From an uncultured Lachnospiraceae bacterium (lineage in GTDB: Bacteria > Bacillota > Clostridia > Oscillospirales > CAG-272), in assembly GCA_964570825.1 (NCBI GenBank), contig CAZMZJ010000006.1:70202-134201 (forward strand): a stretch of DNA of 64,000 nucleotides. Reading direction: 5' to 3'. Under the pieces are notes generated by a model. The model had not been told where the DNA came from and searched no databases. It worked only from the letters and a program-made list of their open reading frames with translations. The position numbers and the translations under genes are program-made. Shown here in pieces: positions 4,164 through 59,804 of the stretch; the stretch's first letter is position 1, and each line of letters begins with the position of its first letter.

Positions 4164-4240
4164 TGGCGCGTCGTAAGGGACTCGAACCCCCGACCTACTG
4201 GTTCGTAGCCAGTCACTCTATCCAGCTGAGCTAACGACGC
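4164..4240 (-). tRNA. tRNA-Arg (anticodon ACG)
   Basis: The reverse complement reads GCGTCGTTAGCTCAGCTGGATAGAGTGACTGGCTACGAACCAGTAGGTCGGGGGTTCGAGTCCCTTACGACGCGCCA. It has a 7-bp acceptor stem, D-loop AGCTCAGCTGGATAGAG, anticodon loop CTACGAA, T-arm GGTTCGAGTCC and an encoded CCA. Confidence 0.92.
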
Positions 4241-28379: not shown

Positions 28380-29537
28380 TTACTCTTCCTTCTCGCCTTC
28401 CTCGCTGGTTTTGTCCTTATCCTTATCGTTATCCTTGTCGCGGTCGCTGGCCTGCGGGCGCGACAGCACCCTGACGTCGGCACGGTTGAATGTCTTGGGA
28501 GGATTGTCCTGTTTGTCGGAAAGTCTGACTTTAATCATGCCGGAAAGCGGGTTGATTTCGGTTACCACGCCGTCCCCGTCGGCGGTTCTGACCACGGAAT
28601 CGACGGGAGGAGTCTGCCTGATTTCATCCACATATGTGTCGTATTCATAGCGCAGGCAGCACATGAGCCGGCCGCAGCAGCCGGATATTTTATTTGAGTT
28701 GAGCGAAAGATTCTGCTCTTTCGCCATTTTAATCGAAACCTGAACGAAATCAGAGAGGAAAGTCGAGCAGCAGAGCGGGCGGCCGCAGGCTCCGATTCCG
28801 CCGAGCAGTTTAGCTTCGTCGCGAATTCCGATCTGCCGCAGTTCTATTCTCGTGCGGAAAACAGAGGCGAGGTCCTTGACCAGCTCGCGGAAATCGACGC
28901 GTCCGGCCGAGGTGAAGTAAAACAGCAGCTTTGAGTTGTCGAAGGTGTATTGAGCGTCTACAAGCTTCATGTCAAGCTCGTGCTTGGCGATTTTTTCAAG
29001 ACAGATATTGAAGGCTTCCTTTTCGCGCTTATGGTTCTGTTCGTTATGCTCGGCGTCCTCTCGGGTAGCTATTCGGATTAGCGGGCGCAGCGGCGGAACT
29101 ATGTCTTTTTCAGCGACCCGGCGGTTGGGGAGGTGGACTTCGCCGTATTCCGGCCCGCGCGCTGTTTCAACGATAACAAAGTCCCCTTGCTGAACTTTTA
29201 TTCCGCCCGGGGCGAAATAATATACTTTTCCGGCTTGTTTGAACCTGACTCCGATCACCTCTACGGAACCGGCGGCATCAGAGGCTGTCGGCACGGCTTG
29301 TTTTCCGGCATCGAAGTCAAAAGAGGAAAAGTCCGGCATCCTGTTCGCCTGCACCCCGCCGGGGACATCAGCAGAGGTTTTTTCAGTTTCGCCTGCTTCC
29401 TTAGCGACAGGAATTTCCCAAACAGGCTGCGGCGCCAGTGTTTCGGCTGAATCGTTGGCATCAGTTCCTTCTTTTACGGAAGGCTCGTGCTCGCCGCTGC
29501 CGCTGGGAACTGCGTTCTTGTTCTGTATATCGTCCAT
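28380..29537 (-). CDS. ricT: PSP1-domain protein (YaaT/RicT-like)
   Basis: The product contains VIGVRFKQAGKVYYFAPGGIKVQQGDFVIVETARGPEYGEV and the Cys cluster CGRPLCC...CCGRLMCCLRYE. It carries an ~90-aa N-terminal extension and an acidic DKDNDKDKDK tail. Confidence 0.85.
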   Translation of the reverse strand: MDDIQNKNAVPSGSGEHEPSVKEGTDANDSAETLAPQPVWEIPVAKEAGETEKTSADVPGGVQANRMPDFSSFDFDAGKQAVPTASDAAGSVEVIGVRFKQAGKVYYFAPGGIKVQQGDFVIVETARGPEYGEVHLPNRRVAEKDIVPPLRPLIRIATREDAEHNEQNHKREKEAFNICLEKIAKHELDMKLVDAQYTFDNSKLLFYFTSAGRVDFRELVKDLASVFRTRIELRQIGIRDEAKLLGGIGACGRPLCCSTFLSDFVQVSIKMAKEQNLSLNSNKISGCCGRLMCCLRYEYDTYVDEIRQTPPVDSVVRTADGDGVVTEINPLSGMIKVRLSDKQDNPPKTFNRADVRVLSRPQASDRDKDNDKDKDKTSEEGEKEE

Positions 29538-29594
29538 TATTTTAGCATTCCTTTCAGTATGTGCCCGCCGCCGTTATTCGGGCTGACGGTGCGC

Positions 29595-30614
29595 TTAGCT
29601 TATTAAGATCAAATTCAATAACGTCAGGCGGAGGTTGGCGTTCCTTTCAAGCATCATAGAAGCTCCGTCTGTTTTTTCGCGGAGCGAAAGCAGGCCCGAA
29701 AGAGAAAACCGGCATGATATGTCGAGCGCTTCCTCGCGGTCAGGCCAGAACAAAAGGGGAGCGTTATCTGATTTTTTCAGCACTATAAGGTCACGCAGCG
29801 CGTCTGACGCGGAAGAAAGCACGGCTGCGGCGTCCTCGCGCTTTTGCGGAAATAAAGATATGATTTGAAGCCTTTCAGACGCCGAAACTGAGGGAAGGAA
29901 AGCGCTGATAAAGCTTTTGGCAAGGCGGCGGCGTTCAATGACAGGCTTGCGGGCTTCTGGGTCGAGCAGGCAGAGCGCCTTTCCGATGCAGCCGCCCGAT
30001 ACGCTTATGATTTCCGCCAGCTCGTCCGGGGAAGAGGCCGACAATTCCGCGGCCCTTTTGTCATGCGTGACGATGTATTCTGAAACCGTACGAGTGTCAA
30101 GCAGGCTGGTGCGAAGAACCGGAGCGCGGCTTCGGACTGTTTCGAGCAAGACCGACGCTGACTGGCAGATAAGAAAGAAGACCGCGTATTCCGGCGGTTC
30201 CTCAAGCGTGAGCAGAAGGGCGTTCTGCGCCTGCGGAGTCATTTTATCGGCATCTTCAATAATATATACTTTATTTGCAAAATCATTCGGGACGGCGAGC
30301 ACATCCTGCCTGATAAAGCGCGCCGAGTCAACTCCGACGGTGGATTTGTCTTTCTCCACAGTAATCCTTATCACATCCGGAGTTTTACCTCCGAATATTT
30401 TCCGGCAGGCCGCACATTCGAAGCATGGAAGTCTGCCGCAGGATTTTTTTTCGCAGGATAATGCCGCGGCGGCCGTGAGAGCGAGCGTTTTTCTCCCGCT
30501 TCCCGGCGGGCCTTCAATAATATAAGCGTGAGGGAAGCTGCCCTTTAGTATTTCTTCCGCAAGGCGCAGACGGAGCGGGATGTTTCCGGCGATATTTGAA
30601 AAATATCCGCTCAT
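29595..30614 (-). CDS. holB: DNA polymerase III delta-prime subunit
   Basis: The product contains PHAYIIEGPPGSGRKTLAL, the Zn module CGRLPCFECAACRK, NALLLTLEEPP and SRA. Confidence 0.8.
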   Translation of the reverse strand: MSGYFSNIAGNIPLRLRLAEEILKGSFPHAYIIEGPPGSGRKTLALTAAAALSCEKKSCGRLPCFECAACRKIFGGKTPDVIRITVEKDKSTVGVDSARFIRQDVLAVPNDFANKVYIIEDADKMTPQAQNALLLTLEEPPEYAVFFLICQSASVLLETVRSRAPVLRTSLLDTRTVSEYIVTHDKRAAELSASSPDELAEIISVSGGCIGKALCLLDPEARKPVIERRRLAKSFISAFLPSVSASERLQIISLFPQKREDAAAVLSSASDALRDLIVLKKSDNAPLLFWPDREEALDISCRFSLSGLLSLREKTDGASMMLERNANLRLTLLNLILIS

Positions 30615-50830: not shown

Positions 50831-51301
50831 TCAGCCATCCGTTCCGGGTTCGCCTTTCAAATTTGTTTTAAGCTTGTTAAGTTCCTTGAGAAAGGTATCA
50901 AGATCCTTGAACTCGCGGTAGACCGAGGCGAATCTGACATACGCCACCTCGTCGCGCGCCTTTAGCTTATCCATCACCATCTCGCCAAGCTCGCGCGACG
51001 TTACCTCAAGCCGCAGCGAATTTTGAAGCTCGGCTTCGATCTCGGCGACTATCTCCTCGGCGTTGACCGGACGTTTCTGGCAGGCCTTGAGGATTCCCGA
51101 GAGCAGCTTGTTCCTGTCGAACAGCTCTTTTGAGCCGTCTTTTTTTATGACGACAATCTGAACCGACTCGACGACCTCAAACGTGGTAAAACGTTTCGCG
51201 CAGGAAAGGCATTCGCGGCGCCGCCTTATGCTGCTGCCGTCGGAAACCGGTCTGGAATCAATAACCTTACTGTCAGGATATCCGCAGGATGGACATTTCA
51301 T
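50831..51301 (-). CDS. nrdR: transcriptional repressor NrdR
   Basis: The product begins with the zinc ribbon [42 protein letters not shown], followed by an ATP-cone. Confidence 0.95.
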
Positions 51302-51501
51302 ACTTTCAGCAGCCGCGTCAGCGGCATCATTCCTTTCATTTTATTTGCTCAGAATACTTGTTTCTGATTTATATTACCACAATATCTGCCGAAAGTAAAG
51401 TAAAATTTTTGATATTGCCACAATATTTTGATCGTCATGTAAAATCTCGCCGGTTGGAATCTTTTATGTTGTCAGGCCGAGCTTTAACGGAAAAGCGGCA
51501 A

Positions 51502-51531
51502 TAAAAAAGCCGCCACGGCATCCCGCGGCGC
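51502..51531 (-). terminator. candidate terminator downstream of the 51599-51946 ORF
   Basis: On the minus strand: gccgcgggatgccgtggcggc followed by TTTTTT. Confidence 0.5.
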
Positions 51532-51598
51532 ATAACACAATGATTTTTCATCACTTCGGGTGCGCGGGTGCGGAATATGACGGCTTTCGAACCTGTTA

Positions 51599-51946
51599 TC
51601 AGTTAAAGGCAAAGATCTGCGCTGCGTCGGCCTCCTCCTCAGCGGCGTCGGGAAGCAAGTCTTCCATAATAAACGGAAGCGTGCAGGGAGTCACGCAGCC
51701 TCTTGCAACAATCGCGAAGATGTTTTCGGCCTGGTTTCTGTCTCTTCCCGCATAACAATAAACTTTTTCACGCTTGTAGCCGGCATAGACCTGATAAACA
51801 GCCGTGCCGTCGCGTCTGGTTTGGTATAAACGATAGATGACCTCGCTGCCGAGCACCGTAGACGTGCTTTGCATGATAAGTACCCGGCCCTTTTGTTGTT
51901 TTGTGGTTTCGGCTTTTGCTGAAGCGCTTGAAACAATGTAGCTCAT
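51599..51946 (-). CDS. small hypothetical protein (115 aa)
   Basis: The ATG at 51946 follows AAGGAG. The protein is acidic at its C-terminus. It possibly belongs to a clostridial DUF family, but that is not verifiable here. Confidence 0.45.
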   Translation of the reverse strand: MSYIVSSASAKAETTKQQKGRVLIMQSTSTVLGSEVIYRLYQTRRDGTAVYQVYAGYKREKVYCYAGRDRNQAENIFAIVARGCVTPCTLPFIMEDLLPDAAEEEADAAQIFAFN

Positions 51947-52284
51947 GGGCGTCTCCTTATGTTTATTATTATTTGTGCCAATTATATCATGCGAACAAAT
52001 GATCCGCATGATTAAGGATGATATTAGGTATAATATTAAAATTACCATAATTTAACATAGTGTTATTAAAAAAACTGCCGCGCCAGAAATTTAATGTAGA
52101 ATAATGTTCATAAATTTGTTATACTGAATATGAAAAAATTCATCTGTAATACAAAAAAGGCCCGAGTAGAAAATTTGTTCGCATTTAATTAAAATTTCAT
52201 TTTTTTAATTTATTAACATGGTACATGATAACATATTATCAAATGACCATATTTATACAATATGTCTAAAAAAGGAGAATAGAT

Positions 52285-52572
52285 TTGAAAAATACATACA
52301 AAAATCGAAAAGGCGGTTTTCGCTGTCTTGGTCTTGCCGGGCATCTGAGCCGTATGTCGCGCCGTTCGCTGCTGGCGCTTAACATCTGCCTTCCGATAAT
52401 ACTTTTGGTGCTCATAGCGATGATTTTCAAACTTGACGAAGCGGTTCGGGAGCATCCCGAAACGGTGACGCTTATCTACCATAAGATGCTCGAGTACATA
52501 ATCGCCGCCCTTGCCATCGCGATTTCCGGCGCGCTTCTGCTTGACGCGGCGGAGAAAAAGGACAAAAAATAA
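52285..52572 (+). CDS. small two-TM membrane protein (95 aa), TTG start
   Basis: An AAAAGGAG SD sits 7 nt upstream of the TTG. Two hydrophobic helices are present and a hairpin follows the ORF. Confidence 0.35.
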   Translation: MKNTYKNRKGGFRCLGLAGHLSRMSRRSLLALNICLPIILLVLIAMIFKLDEAVREHPETVTLIYHKMLEYIIAALAIAISGALLLDAAEKKDKK

Positions 52573-52610
52573 AAACCAAAAGGAGAGCCTTGTTAAAAGC
52601 TCTCCTTATA
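52572..52610. terminator. terminator hairpin shared by the helicase operon (minus) and the small ORF (plus)
   Basis: aaggagagc-(10 nt)-gctctcctt, with a strong U-run on the minus-strand reading (ccttttggttttt). Confidence 0.55.
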
Positions 52611-52723: not shown

Positions 52724-55051
52724 TCAGTACTCCGCAAGCATTTCATTTAGCCTTCTCTCCGCCTCGTCGGCGCGGAGCCTGTCGGCCGCGTATGCCTTTC
52801 TCAGCAGTTCTCCCGGTATGAAGTCGTCATACTTGTCAAACACCGGGAGCTCACCCGCTGAAACGAGCGCCTCGCAGTCGATTCCTTCGGTTCTTGCTTT
52901 GTCTGCAAGAGCTTTTATAAGTTCGTAATCATTGCCCCGCTCCATGCGGAACGTCATATAGCAGCAGCCTTCAAAATCAAGGTTTGAAATTTTGAATTCC
53001 TTTGAATTCTGCGCAAGGTACTTGCGCAGCGTTCTGAACGAACGCGTGCCGAGCCACGGGAAAAGGCACCACGAGTATCCTCCGAGGCAAACCATCGAAT
53101 GCTCGAGCATCCCTGTGTTCCGCGCAAGATGCCGCGCCACATCGAGCCTCTGAACGGCATTCGGCTTGAGGTACGGATAAACCGTGTCCTCGGCGAGCAC
53201 TTTTTTCATCCTCTCAAGGATCCGCGTGTGAATTTCGCCGTAGTCGCCGGGCCATGCGATCTCCATCTTGCCCTCGACGCCCCTGACGTAAATCAGCTTG
53301 CGCTTGATGTCAAGCTCCTCGACCTCCCAGACGCGTCCGGCGAGAGCGAATCTGTCTCCCACAGGGGGCGGGGATGTGATGACTCCTATTTCGTCCGAGC
53401 CGCAGCGCACGGTATAGTCCTCGGTATCTTTGAAAACGGCGTAAAACCTGAAGCTTTTCATTAGTTTCTCGCCTTCAAGGCCAACAATAAGCCCTTTTTC
53501 CTCGGTCATCTCCAAAAAGCCGTCTTTCAGCATGGAAAGAATCAGGGTTTTGTAATCCTCCTTGCTCACCGCGGCGAACGGAGGCAGCGCAAGCACCCGG
53601 TCGGCAAGCCGTTTCGGCGTCAGCTCGCCCGACGCGCCGAGAATGCTCAGCGTCTGCTGGAACAGTAGCGAGAACGGCAGCTTCCGCACAAGCGGAGGCT
53701 CGATAAACCTTTCCTCGATGTACAGTTGTATTATCGCTATGGCCCTGAGCAGCCCCCATGGAATCAGCTGCGGCAGGGGAGTATTCGGCAGCGGATTTTC
53801 TTCGCGGAAAACCATCATCATCTCCGGTGGCTGTCCGCGGCGTCCCGAGCGACCGAGCCGCTGCAGGAAGCTTGAAACTGAGCTTGGCGCGTCGTTGTGC
53901 AGAACTCTCTCAAGCCGCCCGATGTCGACTCCAAGCTCAAGAGTGACGGTTGCGCAGGTGACGGCCTGAACGTTTTCGTCCTTCATTTTAAGCTCTGCTT
54001 CCTCGCGTATTGACGCGGAAAGGAATCCGTGATGAATCAGGAAGATATCCGGCTCGCCGCGCCGCTTGGCAATCTGCCTGAAGGTGGCGCAGATATATTC
54101 CGTTTCCTCGCGTGAATTTGAAAAGACAAGAGATTTCTTGTCCTTAACGCAGTCGTACATATATTCGTATCCCGCGTCAAGCTCCGCGGCAGCCGGCTGT
54201 TTCTGCCCGTTTGTGCTTTCCGCCGCCTCTGACGTCTCTCCGCCGTTCACTCGTGTTGCCGGAAGGCAATTTTTTTCGCTGTCAGCAATCGCGGGACGGT
54301 TTTCGTAGCTGCCGCGGTCTGTCTGGTCTTCCTTAAGGTTTTGAATATAAAAATGCTCAAGGCCGAGTCTCCAGCGGAGCTTTTCCTCTTTGAACAGCGG
54401 GATATCGGTCTTACGCATGGTTCCGGCCGACAGCCAGGCCGCTGCCAGCTCCGGGTCGCCGACAGTCGCTGAAAGTCCTATGCGGCGTGGCGTCCGGCCT
54501 ATAATGCGCGCGATCCGGCACAGCTGGCAGATTATCTGGTTGCCACGGTCGGCGCCTGTCAGGGTATGAATTTCGTCTATAATTATATATCGCAGGTCGC
54601 AGAAAAGCCGCACTATGTCGTTCGAGCGGTTGAGCAGCATAGACTCGAGCGACTCCGGCGTTATCTGGAGAATTCCGGACGGATTTTCGAGTAGTTTTCT
54701 CTTGTGTGAAGCTGCCACATCACCGTGCCAGTGAGTGACCCTGATGCCGGTCTGTTCGAGCAGCTCGTCGATTCTTGCAAACTGGTCGTTGATGAGGCTT
54801 TTCAGCGGCGCGATGTAAAGAACGCCGACCGATGCGGGCGGATTTTCCCATATGTCGGTGAGCACGGGGAAAAAGGCCGCCTCGGTCTTGCCGCTTGCTG
54901 TCGACGAGGTGAGAAGCAGGTTGTGGTCGGTTTCAAATATCGAATGTGCCGCCGCAATCTGGACAGCGCGAAGGCTGTCCCAGGAATGCGAGTAAATGAA
55001 TTCCCGTATGAAATCCGGAAATCTCTCGAAAATCATGTCGGCTTCCGTCAT
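52724..55051 (-). CDS. Lhr-like superfamily-2 DExH helicase with a C-terminal DEAD-associated region (third gene of a Shango-like module; BrxHI-like)
   Basis: Motif I is SSTASGKTEAAF, motif II YIIIDEIHTL, motif III GLSATVG and motif VI QRLGRSGRRG. The product is 775 aa and the SD is GGAGGTGGG. Confidence 0.85.
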   Translation of the reverse strand: MTEADMIFERFPDFIREFIYSHSWDSLRAVQIAAAHSIFETDHNLLLTSSTASGKTEAAFFPVLTDIWENPPASVGVLYIAPLKSLINDQFARIDELLEQTGIRVTHWHGDVAASHKRKLLENPSGILQITPESLESMLLNRSNDIVRLFCDLRYIIIDEIHTLTGADRGNQIICQLCRIARIIGRTPRRIGLSATVGDPELAAAWLSAGTMRKTDIPLFKEEKLRWRLGLEHFYIQNLKEDQTDRGSYENRPAIADSEKNCLPATRVNGGETSEAAESTNGQKQPAAAELDAGYEYMYDCVKDKKSLVFSNSREETEYICATFRQIAKRRGEPDIFLIHHGFLSASIREEAELKMKDENVQAVTCATVTLELGVDIGRLERVLHNDAPSSVSSFLQRLGRSGRRGQPPEMMMVFREENPLPNTPLPQLIPWGLLRAIAIIQLYIEERFIEPPLVRKLPFSLLFQQTLSILGASGELTPKRLADRVLALPPFAAVSKEDYKTLILSMLKDGFLEMTEEKGLIVGLEGEKLMKSFRFYAVFKDTEDYTVRCGSDEIGVITSPPPVGDRFALAGRVWEVEELDIKRKLIYVRGVEGKMEIAWPGDYGEIHTRILERMKKVLAEDTVYPYLKPNAVQRLDVARHLARNTGMLEHSMVCLGGYSWCLFPWLGTRSFRTLRKYLAQNSKEFKISNLDFEGCCYMTFRMERGNDYELIKALADKARTEGIDCEALVSAGELPVFDKYDDFIPGELLRKAYAADRLRADEAERRLNEMLAEY

Positions 55052-55151
55052 AAAATGCCCACCTCCGGAATACGCAAAGCGCGGGGCACCGCCCCGAACC
55101 TCCGATAATCGATAATATTGATGAAAATTTGTAAAAAATCGCAGAATGCCT

Positions 55152-56612
55152 TTAGAATATTATATCTTCGGGATTAAAATCCGGCTTTCCTCTGCCGTCG
55201 GAATCATCGGATTCAGGCGTGGAAACGTCTTTGCCGCCGTCACTGCCGATTTTGTTGTCGGTTTTATATTTACCATTGTTTTCGTTTTCATTTTCGTTGT
55301 TATTTTCATCTTCATCAGCTTCGCCGGCGGTTTTGAGCGTCACCGCCGTCCCGACAATGTCGTTGAACGACGCCGACGGGTTTTGCATGAGAATGTTGAG
55401 GACCGTCATATAATCCCTCAGCATTTCGCGCGGAGTTATCATCGCGTTGGCCCCGGCGCGCTCAAGGCAGATGTTGAGAAACCGGACCATTTCCTCGTCG
55501 GTAATTCTCGGCGTCCAGTTATAATTCTGCGAATAAAGCCGGGTGATTCTCACTATAAGCGCCAGCAGCTCGTCGTCTGAGAGCCGCCGCAGGCGTATGA
55601 CCGGGCCGATAAGATTTTTATATCCTTCAAGCGCGAACCGGCTGTCGCAGAGCCTTGACCTCAGGGCCTCGTAGCTGAACAGTCCCCGCCGGGTATCCTC
55701 GAGAAACTGCGGAGTTCCGCCGAGTATTATTTCAAGTCCGGGCGCGCGCCCCTGAAGAGTGTCGTTGAACATCGAAAGGATTTTCTCATAGTTGTTCTCA
55801 CGGCTTACGCGGTGCGTGATTTTATAGAGGTTCACGCATTCGTCGATGAATACGACAAGCCCGCGGTATCCCATCCGCCGTACGAGAGCCGCCCAAAGCT
55901 TTATGAAATCGTACCAGTTGTCGTCGTCGATTATCACCGACACTGAAAATCCGAGCGATATGCGTGCCTCGGTTTTTGTGGTATATTCTCCGCGCAGCCA
56001 TCTGATGCAGGCGCTCTTGATATCCTCATCTCCGGCGGTGTAAGCCCGGTAATATTCCGCGACCACCCTGGCAAAATCAAAGCCGCCGACGAGGAACTCG
56101 ACCTCGCGCAGCTCGTCCATCACTTTTGAGCCGAGCCTGCGTGTGAATTCCGCGCTTCCAGCTTCGATTCCTTCGGACGCTAAATCAGCCTGCAGCGCGC
56201 TTATCCAGCGGGCGATGATTTTCGGCAGAGCGCCGCCGTCGGGAGAGGACTTTGAGGCGAGGTTTTTCATCAGCTCGCGGTAAGTCGCGGCGCCGCTGCC
56301 GCCGCTGCCGTAAAGCCGGCGTTCTGGCGACAGATCGGCGTCTGCTGTAATAAAGTCCCGCTCGAGAGCATACCCGCGTATCAGTTGCATAAGGAAGCTC
56401 TTGCCGCTGCCGTACCGGCCGATGAGGAAGCGCATCGAACCGCCGCCCTCATTGACAGCCTCAAGGTCTGAGAGCAGCGCCGCGATTTCGTCCTTGCGTC
56501 CTATTGCGATATACGGTGCTCCGGCGCGCGGCACAACTCCGGCGGAAACCGACGCGAGCAGCGAGGCGAGTATTCTTTTGGGAACATTTGGTGTGCTGCT
56601 TATATCAGTCAT
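55152..56612 (-). CDS. DUF2791 / BrxD-type P-loop ATPase (second gene of a Shango-like module)
   Basis: The ATG at 56612 follows AAAGGAAG and overlaps the upstream stop (ATGACTGA). The product reads ILASLLASVSAGVVPRAGAPYIAIGRKDEIAALLSDLEAV..GGGSMRFLIGRYGSGKSFL (Walker A), with Walker B LVVFIDEC and an acidic/Asn-rich tail. Confidence 0.8.
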   Translation of the reverse strand: MTDISSTPNVPKRILASLLASVSAGVVPRAGAPYIAIGRKDEIAALLSDLEAVNEGGGSMRFLIGRYGSGKSFLMQLIRGYALERDFITADADLSPERRLYGSGGSGAATYRELMKNLASKSSPDGGALPKIIARWISALQADLASEGIEAGSAEFTRRLGSKVMDELREVEFLVGGFDFARVVAEYYRAYTAGDEDIKSACIRWLRGEYTTKTEARISLGFSVSVIIDDDNWYDFIKLWAALVRRMGYRGLVVFIDECVNLYKITHRVSRENNYEKILSMFNDTLQGRAPGLEIILGGTPQFLEDTRRGLFSYEALRSRLCDSRFALEGYKNLIGPVIRLRRLSDDELLALIVRITRLYSQNYNWTPRITDEEMVRFLNICLERAGANAMITPREMLRDYMTVLNILMQNPSASFNDIVGTAVTLKTAGEADEDENNNENENENNGKYKTDNKIGSDGGKDVSTPESDDSDGRGKPDFNPEDIIF

Positions 56613-58119
56613 CAAAAACTTCCTTTCTGTAATCTTCAATAAATGAATAACCCTCGCCATCCTCGGCGAGTATAACGTCGCCTATTGTTCCGGCTGAAAT
56701 TTCGTTTATCCGGTCGGCTATATAGTCGGGCAGCATGCCGCGCTCCGAGGCGAAGCTGAGCTGGCCCGAATAGTCGCGCCTGTCGGCAAGACGCACGAAT
56801 TCAATGAAGTCGCCGAGCCGCTCCGCGAGAGTGAGGCATTGTTCGCCAGCCGCCTTATGCACGTCTTTATCGCCCTGATTTTCCGGAGCGGTTGAAGATC
56901 TGCCCGACATCTCGTCAAACATCTCGTCGACAGGCGACCTCAGGCCGCCGTCATTATTGACAGAAGTCCCCTTTTCCTCAAATGCCGCGGCGAGGCGTTC
57001 GGTGGTCTCCCACGAGGCCTGCTCAATTTCGGCCGCGCGTTCGTGCGATGCGCCTTTAATCGGAAGGTTGTAATATTTGTCGTAATCGTGGATTTCAGGC
57101 TCGGCGGCTTTTCGCTTTTTCGGCAGAGCGCCGGCAAAGTACTCGTCTATGCACGCGCGCATCGGGGCGGGAAGAGCGAAGACGCTGAGTCTTGACTTGA
57201 TGCCCAGATAAGCGCGGATTTTATTTTCGGAATACTTTATAATGTCGGTCACCAGAAAACGAAGCTCGTGGGTGCGGGAGAACGAGCAGTAATCCGCCTC
57301 GATTTTTTTCTTGACCTCGTACGAGCACAGAGCGCCCGCGAAAGCATCGCGGATGATATGGCTGTCCTCAAGGCCGGCGCCCGAAAGAAGCTGTCCGCTG
57401 TCGTTTGAAAAGCGTTTTACCGTCGCCGCAAGTGAATTGCGAATGTGGGTGTCGAAAAGGGGCAGCGCGTCGCCTCTTGCGAATTTGCTGGTTTTGTAAT
57501 CGTAATTTGTGCAGAATGTGAGCAGCATATTGCAATATCCGTCCTCGGCGCCGTCCTTTGACGACATAAAGAATTCTTTCAGCGTGCAGGACTGCACCGC
57601 CACGGCAGGTATTCCGTATGACTTGATATCAGGCGGCGGCAAGTGGAAAATCAGCGAAAAATCGCATATCCATTCGCCGAGCATACGGTCGAATCTTGGA
57701 AATTCTTCGCGGTACGCCTTCCAGACGCCGCAAAGCTGGCTCTGTCCCCATGCGGGGTTTCCGTGCCCTCCTGTGTTGATTATCTCGTATATGAAAAGAA
57801 GTATATAGCTGTAGTCGCTTTTGAGGTAGCGTCCGGAGATCGCGCAGGTGCGCCACCACAGGTACCATTGCAGCTGCTGCCGCGAAAGCTGCGAAAACTG
57901 CGGGACATATGAAAAGAATGGTACCGGCTGGCACTCGGAGCTGGCGATATTGTTAATTTTCCTCGCGTGGCGAAGGAACTGTTCATAATAATTGTAGCTT
58001 GTTTTCCAGTTAAAAATCCTTACCTTGTGAATCAAGCTGTGGGCCGGCGCGTACTCGTCGTCGGGCTTCGGCGGTGAGGCGAACTCCTGCGCGGTGTGCG
58101 GAGGAATGAATTTTTTCAC
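56605..58119 (-). CDS. TerB-N / TerB-C domain protein (first gene of a Shango-like module); true 5' end unresolved
   Basis: TerB-N-like sequence is PFFSYVPQFSQLSRQQLQWYLWWRTCAISGRYLKSDYSYILLFIYEIIN. TerB-C-like sequence is LPDYIADRINEISAGTIGDVILAED. The listed start is a GTG with no SD, and the frame stays open upstream to 58389. Confidence 0.75.
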   Translation of the reverse strand: MKKFIPPHTAQEFASPPKPDDEYAPAHSLIHKVRIFNWKTSYNYYEQFLRHARKINNIASSECQPVPFFSYVPQFSQLSRQQLQWYLWWRTCAISGRYLKSDYSYILLFIYEIINTGGHGNPAWGQSQLCGVWKAYREEFPRFDRMLGEWICDFSLIFHLPPPDIKSYGIPAVAVQSCTLKEFFMSSKDGAEDGYCNMLLTFCTNYDYKTSKFARGDALPLFDTHIRNSLAATVKRFSNDSGQLLSGAGLEDSHIIRDAFAGALCSYEVKKKIEADYCSFSRTHELRFLVTDIIKYSENKIRAYLGIKSRLSVFALPAPMRACIDEYFAGALPKKRKAAEPEIHDYDKYYNLPIKGASHERAAEIEQASWETTERLAAAFEEKGTSVNNDGGLRSPVDEMFDEMSGRSSTAPENQGDKDVHKAAGEQCLTLAERLGDFIEFVRLADRRDYSGQLSFASERGMLPDYIADRINEISAGTIGDVILAEDGEGYSFIEDYRKEVFDD

Positions 58120-58383
58120 GAGCAGGCGGCTGTCGTCGGACGCGCTTGCCGCGGAGGCGTTGTTATTCTGCGGTCCGCGCGGCTCGACAGTTATTTCAAC
58201 AGTATCGGTTGAACGCTGCGGGTGCTGAGGGCAGCTTTTTCTTATGGGCAGCAGAGTCTCAATATTCCAGAACCCGTCAAGCTCCTTCTGCCTTTCTTTA
58301 TTTGAATCTTCCGTGGGAACACGCCTCCTTTCCGGTAGAGTATATATTATTAGGATGATATGTTTCGTATTCTTTAACGATAC

Positions 58384-58412
58384 ATTATATCACTATATAT
58401 GTATATTGTCAA
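58384..58412 (-). promoter_or_regulatory. consensus sigma-A promoter of the TerB/ATPase/helicase operon
   Basis: On the minus strand: TTGACA (58412-58407), an exact 17-nt spacer, then TATAAT (58389-58384). Confidence 0.6.
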
Positions 58413-58471
58413 TCGGGAGGCGTTTTTTATGGAAGACATATGTGCCATGTATATAAAAATTAACGCCGTTG

Positions 58472-58500
58472 TTGACAAAATACGCGCGTAGTGATAAAAT
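58472..58500 (+). promoter_or_regulatory. sigma-A promoter of the pyr operon
   Basis: TTGACA (58472-58477), a 17-nt spacer, then TAAAAT (58495-58500). It is divergent from the previous promoter. Confidence 0.55.
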
Positions 58501-58535: not shown

Positions 58536-59804
58536 ATGGACTTGCTGCTGAAGGGCGCGTATGTGTTTAATGAGAACGGCTTTGACAAGGGCGACGTGTT
58601 CATTTCAGACGATTCCGCCGCCAGTTTTTCCGGATTGTCCGGAACCCGCGTCAGGGAAATTGATTTCTCCGGCAGGTTTGTTTTCCCCGGCTTTACAGAT
58701 GTGCACGTTCATCTGAGAGAGCCGGGTTTTTCGTATAAGGAGAGGATAGCGACCGGGACGCTTGCGGCGTCCCGCGGAGGGTTCACCACTGTTTTTGCCA
58801 TGCCGAACCTCAATCCCTCGCCGGACGGGCGTGCGGGGCTTGACGCCGAGCTTGCGGCGATAGCCGGCGGAGCGTTGATCCGCGTACTGCCGTATGGCGC
58901 GATAACAAAGGGCAGCATGGGCAAAGAAATGGCGGATTTTGAAGCGATGCCGGATGCCGTGGCGTTTTCCGACGACGGAAAGGGTACGGCTCCTGAAGTG
59001 CTGGAAGAAGCGATGCTCCGGGTTAAAAAAACGGGAAGGATAATCTGTTCGCACTGCGAGGATGCGTCGCTCAAGGGAGGAGACCATATCGCCCAAGGCT
59101 CACCGTATGCGAAAAAGCTCGGCATTTCCGGCATCAGCTGTGAGAGTGAATATCTGCAGCTTGAAAAAGAACTGAGCGCCGCGCAGAAGACAGGCTGTCC
59201 GTATCATATGTGCCACATAAGCTGCCGCGAGAGCGTCGAGCTTATAAGAAAGGCAAAAGCCCGCGGACTTGACGTCACCTGCGAGACGGCTCCGCACTAT
59301 ATCGCGCTTGACTACAACAGCGTGACGGAGGATGACGGCCGGTTCAAGATGAACCCGCCCCTGCGCTCACCGGCTGACCGTGCTGCGATAATCGAAGGGA
59401 TAGCGGACGGGACGATAGACATGATTGCAACCGATCATGCGCCGCACTCGGCTGCTGAAAAGGGGAAGGGGCTTGCCGGGAGTGCGATGGGGGTGGTCGG
59501 GCTTGAGACGGCGTTCGCCGTCTGCCATACCGCGCTTGTCAGGACGGGGATAATCAGCCTGCACCGGCTGGTGGAGCTGATGAGTATATCTCCGGCGAAG
59601 CGTTTCGGGGCGGGAAGCGTTACTGTCAGGTCGGGGAAAGCGGCCGACTTTACCGTGTTTGACGTCGGAAGCAGATATAAAATAAACCCCGATGACTTTT
59701 TATCGATGGGAAAGAGCTCGCCGTTTGCGGGGCGCGAGGTATATGGCGAGTGCCTTATGACAGTCTGCGGCGGAAGAATAGTTTACATGAAGGACGGTCT
59801 ATGA
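58536..59804 (+). CDS. pyrC: dihydroorotase
   Basis: The product contains GFTDVHVHLREPGFSYKE, MPNLNP and ATDHAPH. It is 422 aa. Confidence 0.9.
   Translation: MDLLLKGAYVFNENGFDKGDVFISDDSAASFSGLSGTRVREIDFSGRFVFPGFTDVHVHLREPGFSYKERIATGTLAASRGGFTTVFAMPNLNPSPDGRAGLDAELAAIAGGALIRVLPYGAITKGSMGKEMADFEAMPDAVAFSDDGKGTAPEVLEEAMLRVKKTGRIICSHCEDASLKGGDHIAQGSPYAKKLGISGISCESEYLQLEKELSAAQKTGCPYHMCHISCRESVELIRKAKARGLDVTCETAPHYIALDYNSVTEDDGRFKMNPPLRSPADRAAIIEGIADGTIDMIATDHAPHSAAEKGKGLAGSAMGVVGLETAFAVCHTALVRTGIISLHRLVELMSISPAKRFGAGSVTVRSGKAADFTVFDVGSRYKINPDDFLSMGKSSPFAGREVYGECLMTVCGGRIVYMKDGL

Follow-up and report, generated by a model that had tools for sequence, protein, structure and literature searches.

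The locus considered here raises the question whether three genes lying between nrdR and pyrC in an uncultured bacterium form a defence cassette inserted into the chromosome, or a part of the chromosome that the lineage has carried for long. They are found in a stretch of 64,000 nucleotides (nt; hereafter the window) corresponding to positions 70,202 to 134,201, forward strand, of contig CAZMZJ010000006.1 (assembly GCA_964570825.1), from an uncultured Lachnospiraceae bacterium placed by GTDB in Clostridia, Oscillospirales, CAG-272. A preliminary description of the window had proposed three co-directional minus-strand genes, encoding a TerB_N/TerB_C protein, a DUF2791 ATPase and a Lhr-like helicase, and had taken them for a Shango-like accessory defence islet. 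The three open reading frames (ORFs) are confirmed, and are called sngA, sngB and sngC. We favour, with moderate confidence, the view that they form a Shango-family SngA-SngB-SngC operon, which is a long-resident and vertically inherited chromosomal part in this lineage of uncultured Clostridia.

The trio and the Shango family

The best PADLOC match of each protein is the corresponding Shango model: SngA (4e-44, 150 bits, profile positions 75-523 of 528), SngB (8.5e-168, 557 bits, full length) and SngC (1.4e-235, 782 bits, profile positions 5-714 of 720). The Shango assignment made in the preliminary description is thus upheld over nearly the full length of all three proteins, and standard defence-annotation hidden Markov models (HMMs) would call the trio Shango. 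The domains that it had expected are likewise found by Pfam, with TerB_N (8e-17 to 1e-16) and TerB_C (4e-8 to 5e-8) in SngA, BrxC_BrxD (PF10923, formerly DUF2791; 2e-157) together with an AAA_16 match in SngB, and DEAD (1e-27) and Helicase_C (5e-15) in SngC. The motifs that it quoted are all present in the translations, namely FFSYVPQFSQLSRQQLQWYLWWR, YILLFIYEIIN and DYIADRINEISAGTIGDVIL for the first gene, the intact Walker A GRYGSGKS and Walker B VVFIDEC of SngB, and the complete set of superfamily 2 (SF2) helicase motifs of SngC (GKT, DEIH, SAT and QRLGRSGRR).

For calibration, two other trios were scored with the same PADLOC models: that of Pseudomonas aeruginosa (L172; loci are designated by L numbers), which adjoins an integrase and a TraI relaxase, and that of the Clostridium estertheticum plasmid pCF002-344 (NZ_CP086238.1). 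The bit scores of SngA/SngB/SngC are 401/622/964 for P. aeruginosa, 212/620/927 for the plasmid and 150/557/782, hence lower, for the window. By BLASTP, SngB is aligned with its P. aeruginosa counterpart over its full length (43% identity) and SngC end to end (31% identity), and SngB is 49% identical to that of the plasmid. The A-B-C order, with adjacent and co-directional genes, is the same in P. aeruginosa, Aeromonas and C. estertheticum (L169, L170, L172). Validated Shango systems share with the window trio the succession of a TerB_N/TerB_C protein, a BrxD-like ATPase and a DExH helicase, as well as an overlap-coupled A-B junction. Protection against phages by Shango, though modest, has been found by experiment in P. 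aeruginosa PA14, where the efficiency of plating is affected 10-100-fold (Johnson et al., 2023, PMC10250203), and in Escherichia coli (Millman et al., 2022, bioRxiv 10.1101/2022.05.11.491447). Judged by its sequence, the window trio clearly belongs to the Shango family, though it has diverged from the other members, and it is not a BREX fragment.

SngA is predicted to be a non-enzymatic TerB_N/TerB_C protein, in which no catalytic motif was identified. The TerB domain proper, PF05099, gives no match in it even at an E-value of 1 or below, whereas it is matched at 6e-12 in P. aeruginosa SngA, with which the window protein is barely alignable; the idea of TerB as a putative sensor, put forward in the preliminary description, does therefore not apply to this SngA. 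PF05099 is likewise absent from the short-form SngA of the plasmid (533 amino acids, TerB_N and TerB_C only, as in the window), and its region is handled as an insertion by the 528-position PADLOC profile. PF05099 is thus probably not strictly a defining feature of Shango. The window SngA carries a clade-specific N-terminal FW peptide, which neither the P. aeruginosa nor the plasmid protein has. In its AlphaFold2 model (predicted local distance difference test, pLDDT, 84.5), a short N-terminal helix bearing the invariant FW motif, within the conserved peptide ELDxFWxIxxLLP, is followed by a disordered linker, an alpha/beta core (residues ~80-445) that contains TerB_N, a second linker and a small TerB_C domain. 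No neighbour of this model was found among PDB structures (best E-value 0.35, template modelling (TM) score ~0.1) or among the viral structures of BFVD, and sequence searches of PDB with SngA and with SngB returned no match. The SngA lineage itself is large, comprising 432 clusters at 50% identity (E-value of 1e-30 or below), the best 150 of which are mostly aligned over nearly their full length.

SngB is predicted to be an AAA+ ATPase of the BrxC/BrxD family. Its C-terminal tail (window 55152-55330, minus strand) is disordered, of low complexity and rich in Asp, Glu and Asn (…EADEDENNNENENENNGKYK…); the length of this tail varies across homologs, and a 6-nt in-frame indel is located there between two strains. 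SngC is, as far as its motifs and alignments indicate, a DExH helicase of the SngC/BrxHI/Lhr-like group. The Lhr-type C-terminal region noted in the preliminary description relies only on a WH_Lhr match of 21 bits, below the 27-bit Pfam cut-off, and the Lhr-type equivalogs TIGR04121 (203 bits, cut-off 850) and PRK13767 (174 bits, cut-off 849) are far from being reached. The solved structures nearest by sequence to its RecA-like core are those of the repair helicases YprA/MrfA (6znp, 1e-28) and Lhr (5v9x, 8e-28), the likeness being mainly restricted to the helicase core. The C-terminal region is family-specific and aligns with SngC and BrxHI, and in a published helicase tree SngC clusters with BrxHI, DruE and DpdJ (PMC12278908). 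A low-complexity insertion is located between the RecA-like domains (window 54200-54290, residues ~225-300).

Neighbourhood and inheritance of the locus

About 85 related loci were collected via Sng protein searches, a procedure which entails an ascertainment bias. In four relatives, which have the closest SngA homologs, L081 (GCA_016294925), L082 (GCA_012727435), L084 (ENA assembly) and L085 (GCA_965355565), the trio is divergent from holB-PSP1, and in three of them it is followed, as in the window, by a small ORF and nrdR. The same arrangement of a small membrane ORF, a DUF6514-like ORF and nrdR after sngC is found in L081, L123, L125-L127 and L129, and in two more distant genomes the trio lies between mnmE and rplS. 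The closest PyrC (L001, 73% identity) is likewise encoded by GCA_012727435, so that a nearest neighbour chosen without bias carries the trio as well.

The metagenomic part of the set consists of 80 loci with SngB 58-83% identical to that of the window. They keep the A-B-C order and fall into few recurrent contexts: PSP1-holB, addB-addA, dnaE, uppP-ftsK, alaS, and PBP5-ribF-ireB upstream with nrdR downstream. When the two genes upstream and the three genes downstream of the trio are considered (150 non-redundant proteins), the Pfam families that occur most often have housekeeping functions, no integrase or transposase is recurrent, and PADLOC matches are few and mostly generic, such as AddA matching GajB or a partial mad2 domain. 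Defence islands and mobile elements are the usual, though not the defining, location of Shango. By contrast with the window trio, that of P. aeruginosa is located in an integrative element or defence hotspot, and the plasmid trio adjoins relaxase and IS110 transposase genes. The family is indeed mobile elsewhere: SngB-like genes are carried by 697 plasmids, and trios adjoin relaxase, IS110 or integrase genes.

Conservation of the trio resembles that of core genes. Identity to relatives amounts to 80-87% for SngC, 78-81% for SngB and 50-66% for SngA, as compared with 85-87% for NrdR, 85% for PyrD, 73% for PyrC and 56-70% for HolB. Across 10 genomes, Sng and NrdR identities are correlated (Spearman 0.64-0.85), and mean identity is 78% for SngB and SngC vs 74% for NrdR. 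SngB is, in addition, conserved at ~75% among mobile proteobacterial copies too. The trio does not differ from its flanks in GC content (51-57%). A phage or prophage origin was considered and rejected, as no Sng copy was found in GenBank phages and a single weak, partial match in IMG/VR (40% identity over 150 amino acids).

The pyrC side of the locus has a different history. The PSP1-holB block, which flanks sngA in relatives, is located in the window at 28380-30614, about 26 kb from the trio (52724-58314) and in inverted relative orientation. This displacement and inversion imply that the chromosome was rearranged, with one break falling in the intergenic region between holB and sngA, and the pyrC junction thus results from rearrangement and not from insertion. 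In 80 GTDB genomes compared on the pyrC side, upstream synteny is unconserved, the closest PyrC being 73% identical and the others 61% at most; at this distance, such a comparison cannot reveal an empty site. Only L044 among these genomes has nrdR nearby, and the trio is absent there.

Two features of the relatives' neighbourhoods are recorded apart. In L081 (15906-16826), an Abi_2/AbiD-type abortive-infection gene is inserted between sngC and the nrdR block, and it is the only clear defence gene adjoining the trio across the ~85 loci. Several relatives have a DUF5131 gene after nrdR, downstream of the trio (L081:18865-19584, L084:16618-17340), and a DUF5131 gene is also located a few kb from the plasmid Shango of C. 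estertheticum (L170:15517-16389), which may be a coincidence.

Layout of the operon and start of sngA

The trio is predicted to form one transcript, running from a consensus sigma-A promoter to an intrinsic terminator, with sngB translationally coupled to sngA (Table 1). Both the perfect TTGACA-17-TATAAT promoter and the closing hairpin of the preliminary description were recovered by scan, and alignment reveals the same consensus promoter upstream of sngA in L082, L084 and L085. The sngA stop and sngB start overlap in ATGACTGA (56612-56605) and exactly 100 nt separate the sngB stop (55152) from the sngC ATG (55051), in agreement with that description, which had also pointed out the small GC hairpin of this spacer. 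The stem of this hairpin is kept and its loop is variable in L081, L082 and L171, an independent Logan assembly of a second strain, and the entire spacer is absent from L084 and L085. The stem is not followed by a T-run and has no Rfam match, and it is not a terminator; more generally, an Rfam scan of 51.2-58.6 kb revealed no credible RNA element. The flanking nrdR and pyrC genes are confirmed by Pfam. No integrase, transposase or transfer RNA (tRNA) gene lies near the trio in the window, the single tRNA gene of which is far away (4164-4240).

Table 1. Positions of the operon's features and of its flanking genes in the window
Feature	Positions	Strand	Basis or remark
Sigma-70-type promoter, TTGACA-17 nt-TGaTATAAT	58384..58412	minus	promoter scan, 12/12 matches plus TG extension
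Shine-Dalgarno sequence of sngA, GGAAAGGAGG	58324..58333	minus	9 nt 5' of ACG; read from the sequence, aligned with relatives
sngA, 569 codons from ACG	56605..58314	minus	gene callers give only 56605..58119 (GTG start, 504 amino acids)
sngB, 486 amino acids, from the ATG inside ATGACTGA	55152..56612	minus	ORF list, Pfam, PADLOC
GC hairpin CGGGGC-GGT-GCCCCG in the sngB-sngC spacer	55082..55096	minus	sequence and relatives
sngC, 775 amino acids	52724..55051	minus	own Shine-Dalgarno sequence GGAGG at 55066-55062
Terminator-like hairpin closing the operon	52580..52607	minus	12-bp stem, 4-nt loop, T-rich tail TTGGTTTTTA
Context block 3' of the operon, housekeeping, outside the system	50831..52572	mixed	Pfam and synteny
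Small membrane ORF, ~90 amino acids	52285..52572	plus	conserved context
DUF6514-like ORF, ~110 amino acids, directly upstream of nrdR	51599..51946	minus	conserved context
nrdR	50831..51301	minus	Pfam
pyrC	58536..59804		Pfam; pyrC/K/D form the flank on the sngA side

A second, near-consensus promoter (11/12, with TG) is present on the plus strand at 58472-58500, back-to-back with that of the minus strand (58412-58384); the two together span 58384-58500, within the 220-bp sngA-pyrC intergenic region.

The first gene of the preliminary description is a real ORF, but its start is placed at an ACG that lies behind a strong ribosome-binding site and precedes the annotated GTG by about 65 codons. This ACG (58314-58312, minus strand) aligns with the ATG or GTG start of relatives, and there is no in-frame ATG, GTG or TTG between the upstream stop and GTG 58119. 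Homologs span 97-100% of the sngA translation extended 67 codons 5' of the GTG. The N-termini of relatives (MD...ELDxFWDIxxLLPxR) align with the open frame of the window (...TEDSNKERQKELDGFWNIETLLPIRK). The invariant residues of the family are all kept, those upstream of the GTG (D13, F15, W16, I18, L21, P23) among them. The same ACG is found in the second strain, L171, which is 99.5% identical to the window over 4813 bp and differs from it by 18 single-nucleotide polymorphisms (SNPs) and one 6-nt in-frame indel. These differences comprise 5 synonymous and no non-synonymous changes in sngA, 2 and none in sngB, and 5 and 4 in sngC (three of the four non-synonymous ones in the low-complexity insert). 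The resulting 12 synonymous vs 4 non-synonymous differences in the operon indicate purifying selection on the trio. Taken with the shared ACG and the kept N-terminal residues, they argue for a real ACG allele and for functional genes. Translation of sngA thus most likely starts at the ACG, and the annotated 504-amino-acid SngA is probably truncated by 65 residues, as gene callers do not count ACG as a start. A frameshift or assembly error at this place was rejected, since the out-of-frame GTG 58322 opens an ORF of only 26 codons and the sequence of L171 is identical. The ACG start also distinguishes the window sngA from validated Shango systems. With the deep vertical inheritance in housekeeping synteny and the clade-specific N-terminal peptide of SngA, it constitutes what sets this locus apart within the family.

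Possible roles of the trio and alternative readings

If the operon is an immune one, a mechanism can be proposed. SngA would act as a sensor or adaptor and, together with an ORC/Cdc6-like SngB, would recognize an abnormal DNA or replication state. SngB would be an ATP-gated loader or licensing factor for the SngC translocase, and SngC would unwind its target DNA or strip it, the likeliest targets being replication intermediates of phages or of other foreign DNA. As no nuclease or toxin domain was detected in the trio, interference would be expected to be direct or to pass through host nucleases, rather than through abortive killing of the cell. The ACG start, finally, would keep SngA scarce.

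Several points weigh against this mechanism or against the reading that we favour. The loader-plus-helicase model is drawn from folds, and the model of SngB is a moderate one (pLDDT 66); its Foldseek matches, to Orc4, archaeal Cdc6/Orc1, STAND proteins and BrxC (PDB 9zdx), have probabilities of 0.97-1.0 but weak E-values (~1e-3), TM-scores of 0.3-0.44 and ~10% identity, so that its likeness to ORC/Cdc6-type AAA+ initiators and helicase loaders and to BrxC denotes functional analogy and not membership. The mechanism of Shango is unexplained even in validated systems (bioRxiv 10.1101/2025.09.30.679545). BLASTP aligns SngA with P. aeruginosa SngA (L172) over a 61-residue TerB_N motif only (E-value 0.016), and its expression is uncertain, as ACG initiation reaches only ~0.1-1% of that of AUG in E. 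coli reporters (bioRxiv 10.1101/063800). In the more distant lineages L134, L139, L140, L143, L146 and L150-L156 (SngB 63-69% identical), sngA-sngB are directly followed by housekeeping genes (uppP-ftsK, alaS and others), with no sngC detected in up to 10 kb of neighbouring sequence. Adaptor and ATPase can thus occur with no helicase beside them, which argues against an obligate three-part machine. Lastly, immune systems do not typically show such deep core-like synteny or evolve so slowly, and both features would fit a housekeeping role equally well.

Three other readings of the locus account less well for these data. The accessory islet proposed in the preliminary description, which would have been recently acquired and inserted between the core genes nrdR and pyrC, is in keeping with the mobility of the family elsewhere and with the fact that none of the 80 related GTDB genomes has a comparable cassette 5' of pyrC. 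However, the pyrC junction differs through rearrangement, as the position of the holB block at 28.4-30.6 kb indicates, synteny on the nrdR side is kept in L081, L084, L085, L123, L125-L127, L129 and L145, and the closest-PyrC genome (JAAYHB01) has the trio on another contig. As, moreover, GC content does not deviate, mobility genes and tRNA genes are lacking nearby and Sng identities follow those of housekeeping genes, a recent islet is very unlikely, and synteny and co-divergence already go most of the way to refuting it. A decaying operon, in which the change of the sngA start from ATG to ACG would have silenced or truncated SngA and left the system as a relic, is hardly more credible, though somewhat less improbable than the islet. 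The missing in-frame starts, the ATG or GTG of relatives at the aligned position and the weakness of ACG as an initiator in E. coli (bioRxiv 10.1101/063800) are what such a loss would leave behind. Yet a strain 18 SNPs away has the same ACG, the 5 differences in sngA are all synonymous (12 vs 4 in the operon), the 65 codons preceding the GTG stay in frame with every invariant residue kept, and a Shine-Dalgarno sequence is located 9 nt upstream of the ACG. The resemblance of the ATPase and helicase to the BrxD/BrxHI pair of type 2 BREX, also noted in the preliminary description, is real. They are the second-best PADLOC matches (BrxD, 2.5e-50, 170 bits; BrxHI, 8e-123, 409 bits), the ATPases share the Pfam family PF10923, named 'BrxC_BrxD', and BrxHI is the nearest defence-helicase relative of SngC (PMC12278908). 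That the pair is a fragment or variant of BREX is nevertheless extremely improbable, and was rejected: the Sng models score much higher (557 and 782 bits), the NCBIfam model BREX_BrxD (NF033438) gives 168 bits vs a cut-off of 350, and neither the window trio, flanked by nrdR and pyr genes, nor the related trios are flanked by PglX, PglZ, BrxA/B/C-like or other Brx genes.

A more serious alternative, which we nonetheless hold to be unlikely, is that the trio of this clade is a domesticated or ancestral housekeeping module of genome maintenance and not an immune system. Stalled forks, R-loops or damaged DNA would then be the sites where the ATPase-adaptor pair loads a repair helicase, and the homology with Shango would reflect common descent and not a shared biological role. 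Synteny is stable within lineages and associates the trio with holB/PSP1, nrdR, mnmE/rplS, ribF/ireB, addBA, dnaE and ftsK, many of which act in replication or repair. SngB and SngC diverge in step with NrdR and are no less conserved than it is, the consensus promoter is kept in relatives, the closest solved relatives of SngC are DNA-repair helicases, no nuclease or toxin effector belongs to the trio, and only a handful of the 150 neighbours match defence models, most of them generic. Housekeeping synteny with no association with defence islands, which the preliminary description had named as telling against its claim, is in part what is found. On the other hand, all experimentally tested members of the family are anti-phage (PMC10250203; bioRxiv 10.1101/2022.05.11.491447) and the same architecture is mobile in other taxa, with a relaxase and IS110 in C. 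estertheticum and with an integrase and TraI in P. aeruginosa. In the nearest relative, L081, an AbiD/Abi_2 gene directly follows sngC, as is often the case in defence loci; the related loci were gathered by Sng searches, with the bias already mentioned; and the conservation of SngB is also observed in mobile proteobacterial copies. In a narrower form of this alternative, the trio would be fixed in the clade and would evolve slowly as a machine for genome maintenance, its ORC/Cdc6-like ATPase and its adaptor loading a repair or restart helicase; it would be co-inherited with holB, nrdR, dnaE and addAB, and a naturally used ACG would tune its dosage. We consider it slightly less probable still. 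If it were true, mobile Shango would be an exaptation of a housekeeping DNA-processing module or, in the reverse direction, a defence system would have been domesticated to the core genome.

As a vertically inherited Shango operon, the locus does not represent a new type of system. It belongs to a large and diverse lineage of Shango-like trios that are inherited vertically in fixed housekeeping neighbourhoods, with an ATPase and a helicase conserved like core genes, and this lineage provides deep co-evolutionary data on the SngA-SngB-SngC interaction. It also calls for caution in annotation, since some of the 'defence systems' called with HMMs may be modules of the core genome. Finally, it raises the questions of whether Shango may ancestrally be a DNA-maintenance machine, and whether an ACG start may be used to keep its adaptor scarce.

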